Sequence record: PQ511151.1
Strand: one strand, 5' to 3'
DNA from: Escherichia phage NHEP36
DNA length: 64,000 nt
The notes below the pieces were generated by a model, which was not told the DNA's origin, searched no databases, and saw only the letters and a program-made list of their open reading frames with translations. Positions 31,497 through 32,597 of this stretch are shown one piece after another. Position 1 is the stretch's first letter; each line of letters starts with the position of its first letter. Made by a program: the position numbers and the translations under genes.

Positions 31497-32597
31497 ATGA
31501 AAGTTATGTTTATCCCATCTCGTGCAGTCCCATTTAATCCTGACCGTGTACAAGGTGGTCTTGAAGCAGTACATTTAAATGTGTTGAAATATCTTGTGTC
31601 CATCGGTGCTGATATTGATTATATCGGCTTTGATAATGACACGTTTGGTGACTGGAAAGTTACACACCATCCTGTTGGTCATCTGACTAAATTCAGTCTA
31701 GGTATGAGTTATACTATGGCTCGTAAGATTGTTGAACTAGCCGGCATCCATGAATACGATTTTGTTGTTACTATGGAACCGACTAAACTAACCGTTCAGG
31801 CAATTAAAGACGCAGGTCTCTCTAAAGTTCATAAGAATTTTATGGCAACACCATTTGAACCGGTATCTCGTGGCATTGTTCAAATTTGGGACCAGACTAT
31901 TCAAATTCATAAGAATGGTGGTAAGAGTTATGCTCCTACTAAAGCCTTCCGTGAATTTGAACGCAAATATTGTTATATGACTTCAGGTCTGACTGACAAA
32001 ATTGATTATGATTATTGGCGAGCAAATCCGGTGTTTGAAGCCGAAGATTATCCGGTTATTTGTTTGAATGAGAAACCTGAAGTTCTTCCGGCGACTGATC
32101 TGATTATTAGTGCACAACGTTATGACACTAAAATGCGTCGTACTGATGTTGCTCTTGAAGCGATTAAAGCACTAGGCGAAAATGGTGTAGGATACTGTCC
32201 TAGCAAATGGGCACCACCAGCTAAATATCCTGTTATTATTGATGCTCCACACGGTGAAATCATGGAACGTCTTAAAACAGCTAAAGCACTTATTAATACG
32301 TGTCCTGACACAGGTACAGTAGAGAATAGTTCTATTGAAGCCATCTCTAAAGGTGTCCCTGTAATCCAGTTAGTTTTTAAGGATTATCCTCATGCGACAT
32401 TCGAATACGACCCAGATACTGTGCGTGTAGAAATTGATTCCTCTACTCCTAAGAAAGAAGTAGTTGCGCTTTACACAAAAGCTGTATTAGAATTCACTGA
32501 CACGTACGAAGCTCGAGTTAAACGTGCTGAAGCAGTATGGAAGAAGTATAATCGAGATGCAGTTGTTGCGATGTGGGATAAAATCTTCACAGCATAA
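31497..32597 (+). CDS. GT-B fold glycosyltransferase (GT4-like); candidate DNA hmC sugar transferase
   Basis: 366 aa; N-terminal MKVMFIPSRAVPFNPDRVQGGLEAVHLNVLKYL resembles GT4 donor-binding N-terminus; C-terminal TGTVENSSIEAISKGVPVI resembles the GT-B E-x7-E / LEAMAcGtPVI motif. Confidence 0.65.
   Translation: MKVMFIPSRAVPFNPDRVQGGLEAVHLNVLKYLVSIGADIDYIGFDNDTFGDWKVTHHPVGHLTKFSLGMSYTMARKIVELAGIHEYDFVVTMEPTKLTVQAIKDAGLSKVHKNFMATPFEPVSRGIVQIWDQTIQIHKNGGKSYAPTKAFREFERKYCYMTSGLTDKIDYDYWRANPVFEAEDYPVICLNEKPEVLPATDLIISAQRYDTKMRRTDVALEAIKALGENGVGYCPSKWAPPAKYPVIIDAPHGEIMERLKTAKALINTCPDTGTVENSSIEAISKGVPVIQLVFKDYPHATFEYDPDTVRVEIDSSTPKKEVVALYTKAVLEFTDTYEARVKRAEAVWKKYNRDAVVAMWDKIFTA

Follow-up and report, generated by a model that had tools for sequence, protein, structure and literature searches.

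Gene arrangement between the topoisomerase gene and rIIA

The window analysed here, a 64,000-nucleotide stretch of DNA from Escherichia phage NHEP36 (PQ511151.1), carries on its + strand an ATG-initiated open reading frame of 366 codons (31497..32597). It encodes a GT-B glycosyltransferase that is a candidate second DNA arabinosyltransferase. By megablast, the window region belongs to the genus Mosigvirus (RB69-like Straboviridae), with 97-98% identity to NHEP10/11, SQ17, phi25-307 and HX01. A ribosome-binding site, AAGG (31486..31489, + strand), was read from the sequence 7 nt 5' of the ATG. The pN/pS ratio of the reading frame was 0.08 against SQ17 and 0.16 against HY126, indicating that it is protein-coding and under purifying selection. 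The coordinates of the gene are exactly those given in a first-pass annotation of this DNA.

Upstream, the locus is bounded by the gene of the topoisomerase II large subunit, a fused gp39+gp60 protein of 605 aa (29637..31454, + strand) that was recognized from its open reading frame and the annotations of relatives. Downstream, it is bounded by rIIA.1 (32690..32890, + strand), which is followed on its 3' side by rIIA (32903..35116, + strand) and, beyond rIIA, by the open reading frame of rIIB (35126..36061). The neighbors are therefore those expected from the earlier placement of the gene between gene 39 and rIIA. The order topoisomerase large subunit, 366-aa reading frame, rIIA.1 is common to SQ17, HY126 and Bas47. 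In T4, the interval from gene 39 to rIIA.1 holds just gene 60, 60.1 and mobA, which confirms that T4 has no glycosyltransferase at this position.

The gene had also been described as standing behind its own terminator and promoter. The first half of this description is supported by a terminator-like UUCG-tetraloop hairpin (AAGCTCC-TTCG-GGAGCTT; 31453..31470, + strand), which overlaps the gp39 stop codon and is followed by the T-rich tail CATTTTAATTTT. Its free energy is -10.5 kcal/mol, and it is the sole terminator-like site in 31200-33000, where 1.1 would be expected from shuffled sequence. The second half is not supported, as a promoter scan of the 26 nt that separate the hairpin from the start codon detected no sigma-70-type promoter. 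Rfam models had no match in 31300-33000.

A UDP-binding enzyme of the GT-B fold

The 366-aa protein is identical at 361 of 366 residues (98.6%) to a phage HY126 protein of the same length, the structures of which were released on 2025-07-16 as PDB 9iqz ('phage HY126 glycosyltransferase', apo) and 9ir0 (the same protein 'with UDP'). The depositor's name for it is 'Glycosyltransferase subfamily 4-like N-terminal domain-containing protein'. The HY126 gene (genome PP658200, protein XAN60436.1) occupies the same locus, and all five HY126 substitutions are present in the sequence of the PDB entries. These substitutions (Y160H, G164A, V179L, G253S and S315F) are conservative, and no functional difference between the two proteins would be expected from them. 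The HY126 structures are reportedly tied to work by He et al. in Nat Chem Biol in 2026.

By sequence, the protein is a member of a family that includes RB69 gp3, the HY126 glycosyltransferase and DLP3 gp76 and gp77, and that corresponds to phrog_8302. This PHROG, described as of 'unknown function', matches the protein over positions 1-366 of 366 (E=7e-222). RB69 ORF003c/gp3 (NP_861693) and bas47_0105 of the BASEL phage Bas47 (AlbertHofmann) are orthologs from the same genus and the same position, with no difference of substance, and DLP3 gp77 and gp76 are 43% and 40% identical to the 366-aa protein, respectively, over the full length. In GenBank, the orthologs are mostly named hypothetical, a few are named alpha-glucosyltransferase or PimA-like, and one record names phosphatidylinositol mannosyltransferase. 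The 'putative hmC-arabinosyltransferase' label of bas47_0105 is outdated, given that recent reports identify the base as 5-hydroxycytosine. In its essentials the system is already known: the gene was proposed in 2018 and annotated in GenBank in 2021, the structure followed in 2025 and the pathway papers in 2025-2026. The window contributes only another near-identical allele.

The first-pass annotation recognized the protein from what it called hallmark GT4-type motifs. Both of the strings that it quoted are present, FIPSRAVPFNPDRVQGGLEAVHLNVLKYL in the N-terminal region and IEAISKGVPVI at residues 280-290. Residues G20, G21, E276, E281, G286, P288 and V289 are invariant in the family alignment; so are R208 and R214, which together with G20, G21, E276 and E281 are donor-site residues. 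However, profile HMMs are blind to these motifs: no family was found in a Pfam scan at E<=10, and none in NCBIfam. The EX7E motif is also absent from its expected C-terminal site, which reads E276-NSSI-E281 (EX4E), and the sole EX7E of the protein lies in the N-terminal domain instead, at residue 86. Because of the missing Pfam match and the E276-x4-E281 spacing, strict GT4 membership is not established. A six-sequence profile of the family matched only the HY126 entry (9iqz) among PDB sequences, and hhalign of the family against T4 alpha-GT and beta-GT returned a probability of 0.2% for each.

The AF2 model of the protein was poor (pLDDT 59), with a shallow alignment. Foldseek with this pLDDT-59 model gave 227 PDB matches at E<=0.001, with the HY126 entries first. 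The best 50 of these 227 all have the GT-B fold, with PimA, BshA, WaaG, tll1591 and GtfA among them, and T4 alpha-GT (1xv5/1y6g) was found at rank 46 (E=1.2e-6). PimA, BshA and WaaG rank high, as do inverting GT1-type enzymes (GtfA, UGTs). The ortholog solved with UDP and the GT-B neighbors together show that the 366-aa protein is a UDP-binding GT-B enzyme, and the fold predicted for it earlier is thereby supported. The same annotation would have withdrawn this assignment if a profile search found no glycosyltransferase family, and formally such a search, in Pfam and NCBIfam, did find none. That standard is too strict, because a glycosyltransferase is evident from the structural neighbors and from the solved ortholog.

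The best non-self structural neighbors are bacterial GT4 enzymes, namely PimA (2gej/4nc9), BshA (3mbo) and WaaG. The 366-aa protein has an N-terminal GG loop, an R..R pair and an EA..G.PV segment that resemble donor-site elements of these enzymes. The identity is about 12-14%, and the bacterial enzymes act on lipids or small molecules, whereas the acceptor proposed here is DNA. T4 alpha-GT and beta-GT are likewise DNA-modifying GT-B enzymes of Straboviridae, and alpha-GT is a distant structural match; they differ from the 366-aa protein in sequence and profile, locus, acceptor (hmC) and sugar (glucose). If the enzyme instead glycosylated something other than DNA, such as a host lipid or LPS, this would be in keeping with the lipid and small-molecule substrates of PimA and BshA, the top non-self neighbors, and with the one GenBank record that names a phosphatidylinositol mannosyltransferase. 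This reading was rejected because, in a genus-level comparison, the family co-occurs with the DNA arabinosylation cassette; moreover, its Acinetobacter homologs are encoded within the cassette and modify DNA in vitro. A non-DNA acceptor is accordingly regarded as extremely improbable.

The sugar cassette and the modified base

A nucleotide-pentose pathway had been located elsewhere in this DNA, and the window indeed contains such a cassette at 5902-12441. The 366-aa gene lies 19.1 kb from the end of the cassette and 25.6 kb from its start, so that the earlier figure of about 21 kb is fair. All of the cassette genes are on the + strand. The first encodes a SIS-domain arabinose-5-phosphate isomerase (5902..6537; Pfam SIS), the ortholog of RB69 gp55 and DLP3 gp83, with 57.6% identity to the latter. 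The second encodes a bifunctional nucleotidyltransferase/kinase (6719..8404) of the RB69 gp52:53, DLP3 gp82 and HY126 AfhE type, which was recognized from Pfam NTP_transferase and kinase-like matches and from 57% identity to DLP3 gp82. Enzymes of the RB69 gp52:53 type make UDP-arabinofuranose (Lee et al., 2026; PMC13326640). The next product is a small HAD-like phosphatase (8389..8790) of the RB69 gp51, DLP3 gp81 and HY126 AfhF type; it has no Pfam match but is 60% identical to DLP3 gp81, and its role is taken from the same paper. A peptidase-U32-family protein (8832..10007; Pfam Peptidase_U32) of the RB69 gp50 type follows and has no counterpart in the DLP3 cassette. The remaining genes encode a thymidylate-synthase (ThyA) homolog (10276..10992), a glycosyltransferase referred to below as GT1 (10992..11891) and a thymidylate-kinase-like nucleotide kinase (11893..12441). 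This kinase corresponds to RB69 gp45 and DLP3 gp78 (46% identity to gp78; Table 1 of PMC13326640). The genes for UvsX, gp40 and gp41 come after the cassette.

The ThyA homolog, a predicted dCMP 5-hydroxylase (5hodCMP synthase), is the ortholog of RB69 gp48 and DLP3 gp80 (Pfam Thymidylat_synt; 70.5% identity to gp80) and is near-identical to HY126 9iqc/9ir2 (E=4.5e-162). It contains RSQN, the D169N signature, as does DLP3 gp80, whereas T4 gp42 contains RSND. Lee et al. (PMC13326640) described D169N as diagnostic of dCMP 5-hydroxylases, and DLP3 gp80 is an experimentally confirmed 5hodCMP synthase. The DNA of RB69 and of Mosigvirus NP was reported to contain mono- and di-arabinosyl-5-hydroxycytosine, and the earlier hmC assignment was called erroneous (PMC13326640; PMC13390438). 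Because of this signature and the RB69 and NP chemistry, the modified base of NHEP36 is very probably 5-hydroxycytosine rather than hmC. The 366-aa protein had been named the most plausible DNA hmC sugar transferase. Its place in a DNA sugar-modification pathway stands, but hmC does not agree with the RSQN signature, and the cassette has a transferase of its own, GT1, which had been overlooked, so that the 366-aa protein is not the sole candidate, nor the obvious one for the base itself.

The cassette transferase GT1

GT1 is a 299-aa GT-B protein, the ortholog of RB69 gp46:47 and DLP3 gp79 (45% identity to gp79), and is a candidate first arabinosyltransferase. Its AF2 model was confident (pLDDT 94.7), with a deep alignment, and Foldseek matched it to MshA, tll1591 and tetrahydrobiopterin (BH4) glucosyltransferase. 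GT1 has no Pfam match, and BLASTP detected no similarity between it and the 366-aa protein. The gene lies directly after that of the ThyA homolog and before uvsX-40-41, which is the slot of beta-gt after gene 42 in T4.

The distributions of the two families differ greatly. Members of the GT1 family are present in 348 phage records, spread over many genera, and form 110 clusters in a large protein database, against only 5 clusters for the family of the 366-aa protein. The carriers of GT1 are phages of Escherichia, Acinetobacter, Klebsiella, Serratia, Enterobacter, Proteus, Yersinia, Edwardsiella, Pectobacterium and Erwinia, and the Shewanella phage Thanatos. The family of the 366-aa protein was found in 211 records, consisting of about 155 Mosigvirus records with one copy each, 55 Acinetobacter phages with two and a single Tegunavirus match. 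When compared at the genus level, the lineages with this family (Mosigvirus and the Acinetobacter phages) also carry GT1. At least 137 phage records have the cassette with GT1 and lack the 366-aa family.

Which transferase would add the second arabinose?

The number of arabinoses per modified base has been reported for several of these phages. Thanatos DNA is mono-arabinosylated, and the phage reportedly has a single arabinosyltransferase, syntenic with GT1 (PMC13326640). Serratia phage LC53 was also reported to be mono-arabinosylated, and no match to the 366-aa family was found among Serratia phage records. The DNA of RB69, NP, Bas46 and Bas47 is di-arabinosylated, and that of DLP3 is tri-arabinosylated (PMC13326640). 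The reported number of arabinoses equals the number of 366-aa family copies plus one (Thanatos, 1; RB69, NP, Bas46 and Bas47, 2; DLP3, 3). Since the 366-aa family is confined to the two- and three-arabinose lineages and GT1 is present in all arabinosylating lineages, the mono-arabinosylated ones included, the 366-aa reading frame more plausibly encodes the transferase for the second arabinose. The same assignment, in which gp46:47 acts first and gp3 acts second, was proposed by Lee et al. (2026; PMC13326640), who list gp3 as 'beta-arabinosyltransferase 2' and as putative only, and in the Durham Collection paper (PMC13390438).

Biochemical data are available for DLP3. With UDP-Araf as the donor, gp76 and gp77 in combination extend already arabinosylated RB69 DNA by a further arabinose in vitro, whereas each is inactive alone (PMC13326640). 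None of the three DLP3 transferases, including the GT1 homolog gp79, worked alone on 5hoC DNA (PMC13326640). In DLP3, two tandem copies are located inside the cassette and together give tri-arabinosylation; the single copy in the window lies 19 kb off the cassette, and di-arabinosylation would be expected. The joint requirement for gp76 and gp77 raises the question of whether the 366-aa protein likewise acts only within a complex of transferases, perhaps one with GT1, or is a partly non-catalytic subunit that positions the acceptor. Such a dependence is very doubtful for the NHEP36 protein. Mosigvirus has a single family copy, the donor-site residues are invariant and the ortholog was crystallized with UDP, all of which argues for a catalytically competent enzyme.

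It is also conceivable, though unlikely, that the 366-aa protein is the primary, base-proximal transferase, which places the first arabinose onto the modified cytosine, and that GT1 does something else. Like the first-pass annotation, published assignments lean this way: Thomas et al. (2018) proposed that RB69 ORF003c is the arabinosyltransferase and carries out the last step of the pathway, and the GenBank name of Bas47_0105 refers to the arabinosylation of hmC. HY126-derived PDB entries exist for the 366-aa ortholog and for the ThyA homolog, and a PDB search found none for GT1. In addition, no transfer to 5hoC DNA by the GT1 homolog gp79 was seen in vitro, and no activity assay of gp3 or of the HY126 ortholog was found in the literature searched. 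On the other hand, a base-proximal role is difficult to reconcile with the records that hold the cassette and GT1 without the 366-aa family, as these include the arabinosylated Thanatos. GT1 also holds the beta-gt slot beside the base-modifying enzyme, and the copy number of the 366-aa family tracks the extra arabinoses.

Addition of the second arabinose to phage DNA by a UDP-sugar-dependent GT-B enzyme is therefore retained as the probable function of the 366-aa protein. We infer or take from the literature that the sugar is arabinose, that the acceptor is mono-arabinosyl-5hoC in DNA, and that the transferases act in this order. In the proposed pathway, dC would be replaced by 5-hydroxy-dC, with the ThyA homolog (10276-10992) making 5hodCMP, and the enzymes encoded at 5.9-8.8 kb would convert ribulose-5-P to UDP-arabinofuranose. 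GT1 (10992-11891) would transfer the first arabinose to the 5-OH group. The 366-aa enzyme would then transfer a second arabinofuranose to the first, giving the di-arabinosyl-5-hydroxycytosine of Mosigvirus DNA, and the extra sugar may thicken the shield against DNA-targeting host defenses. Compared with the first reading of this locus, the base would thus be 5-hydroxycytosine and not hmC, the transferases would number two and not one, and the 366-aa enzyme would probably be the second of them.

A functional parallel is provided by the beta-alpha-glucosyltransferase of T2/T6 (gentiobiosyl-forming, 'TAGT'), which also extends a sugar already present on a modified cytosine and adds an extra counter-defense layer. 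This enzyme uses glucose from UDP-Glc, and its base is hmC; the likeness to the 366-aa protein considered here is one of function. DNA arabinosylation shields Mosigvirus and its relatives from restriction enzymes, CRISPR-Cas and DNA glycosylases, and therefore bears on the choice and engineering of phages for therapy. The 366-aa gene is likely the determinant of the second sugar layer. According to a citing paper that discusses second-sugar transferases, Bas46 with the arabinosyltransferase Aat deleted is viable and sensitized to a defense system.

Origin and plasticity of the locus

The presence of the sugar genes at two loci had been taken to suggest independent acquisition. An independent, horizontal acquisition of the 366-aa gene was considered and rejected on the basis of the flat composition of the window, the location of the Acinetobacter homologs and a divergence like that of GT1. 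GC content is uniform across the window, at about 0.37-0.39. In Lazarusvirus DLP3, the genes of both homologs of the 366-aa protein belong to the cassette, where the kinase flanks them on one side and gp40/gp41 on the other. The identity of the 366-aa protein to its DLP3 homologs (40-43%) is similar to that of GT1 and the kinase (45-46%); it is 57-60% for the sugar-activating enzymes and gp41 and about 70% for the ThyA homolog. A gene that descended together with the cassette and was later relocated would fit these comparisons at least as well as one acquired separately.

The interval from gp39 to rIIA.1 is plastic, judging from the gene content of relatives. In T4 it holds 60, 60.1 and mobA, and Dhakavirus C6, in which GT1 is present and the 366-aa family is absent, has two small reading frames. 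In several Mosigvirus genomes, an HNH homing endonuclease gene is inserted exactly between gp39 and the 366-aa gene. A more elaborate scenario combines relocation through such a homing-endonuclease hot spot with a published transferase order that is wrong or incomplete. In that scenario, the GT4-like enzyme lacking EX7E would be base-proximal or an obligate partner of GT1, and would perhaps form a beta linkage despite its retaining-type structural neighbors. As a whole, this combination is considered quite unlikely. The mobA gene of T4 sits at a site equivalent to that of the HNH insertions beside the 366-aa gene in these relatives.

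Gene junctions flanking the transferase gene

The short interval between gp39 (the topoisomerase II large subunit) and the transferase gene (31497-32597, plus strand) was found to be variable among related phages. In several Mosigvirus genomes, a gene for an HNH homing endonuclease, about 800 bp long, lies exactly between the two, occupying positions 1958-2755 in SQ17 and being likewise present in phi25-307, a20, p000v and F27. This insertion is missing from the window at about 31455-31496. The corresponding junction in T4, between genes 39 and 60, contains mobA, a defective HNH gene, and in the Tegunavirus TG1 a GIY-YIG gene adjoins the topoisomerase gene. 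The gp39/transferase junction appears to be a homing-endonuclease hot spot. At the same junction, a plus-strand hairpin with a UUCG tetraloop (31453-31470) overlaps with the stop codon of gp39, and CATTTTAATTTT follows the hairpin. This hairpin is terminator-like, and the transferase ATG is located just 26 nt downstream; no promoter was found in these 26 nt. The hairpin may serve in transcription attenuation or RNA stabilisation instead of termination.

On the other side, the 92-nt gap that separates the transferase gene from rIIA.1 (32598-32689) contains a strong plus-strand hairpin at 32613-32665. Its outer stem is a perfect 11 bp, formed by the arms GGCACTATTAC and GTAATAGTGCC, and its minimum free energy is -26.1 kcal/mol (z=-3.89), with 0 of 200 shuffled sequences folding equally well. 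Neither a T-run 3' of this hairpin nor an Rfam match to it was detected.

Proteins of the arabinosylation cassette

The cassette encodes a thymidylate-synthase homolog (10276-10992, plus strand) containing RSQN in place of the RSND of T4 gp42. RSQN is the D169N signature of dCMP 5-hydroxylases, from which 5-hydroxycytosine is the modified base to be expected; judging from sequence, the modified base of NHEP36 should accordingly not be hydroxymethylcytosine, the base presumed in the first-pass annotation. Directly after this gene-42 homolog, in the slot of T4 beta-gt, lies GT1, the cassette's own glycosyltransferase (299 aa; 10992-11891, plus strand). GT1 has no Pfam match but is predicted confidently to adopt a GT-B fold (pLDDT 94.7), and its family is far larger and more diverse than that of the transferase at 31497-32597 (110 clusters versus 5). 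The cassette also contains a peptidase-U32-family protein (8832-10007, plus strand), of which the cassette of Acinetobacter phage DLP3 has no counterpart.

Atypical matches to the transferase family

In Shigella phage JK45 (MK962757.1, 2523-4123), the tblastn match to the transferase is split in two and extends over 1601 bp; its summed bit score is 1019, versus about 750 in other records. This points to an inserted or partly duplicated segment in the gene or beside it. One record with an organism name starting with 'Tegunavirus' was also matched by tblastn, at below 60% identity to the transferase family; no gene of this family was found near the topoisomerase gene of Yersinia phage TG1. Finally, the HY126 ortholog in GenBank (XAN60436, from PP658200.1) has LG at residues 288-289, where an invariant PV stands in the PDB sequence, in the window and throughout the family; the LG probably reflects a sequence error in that genome record.
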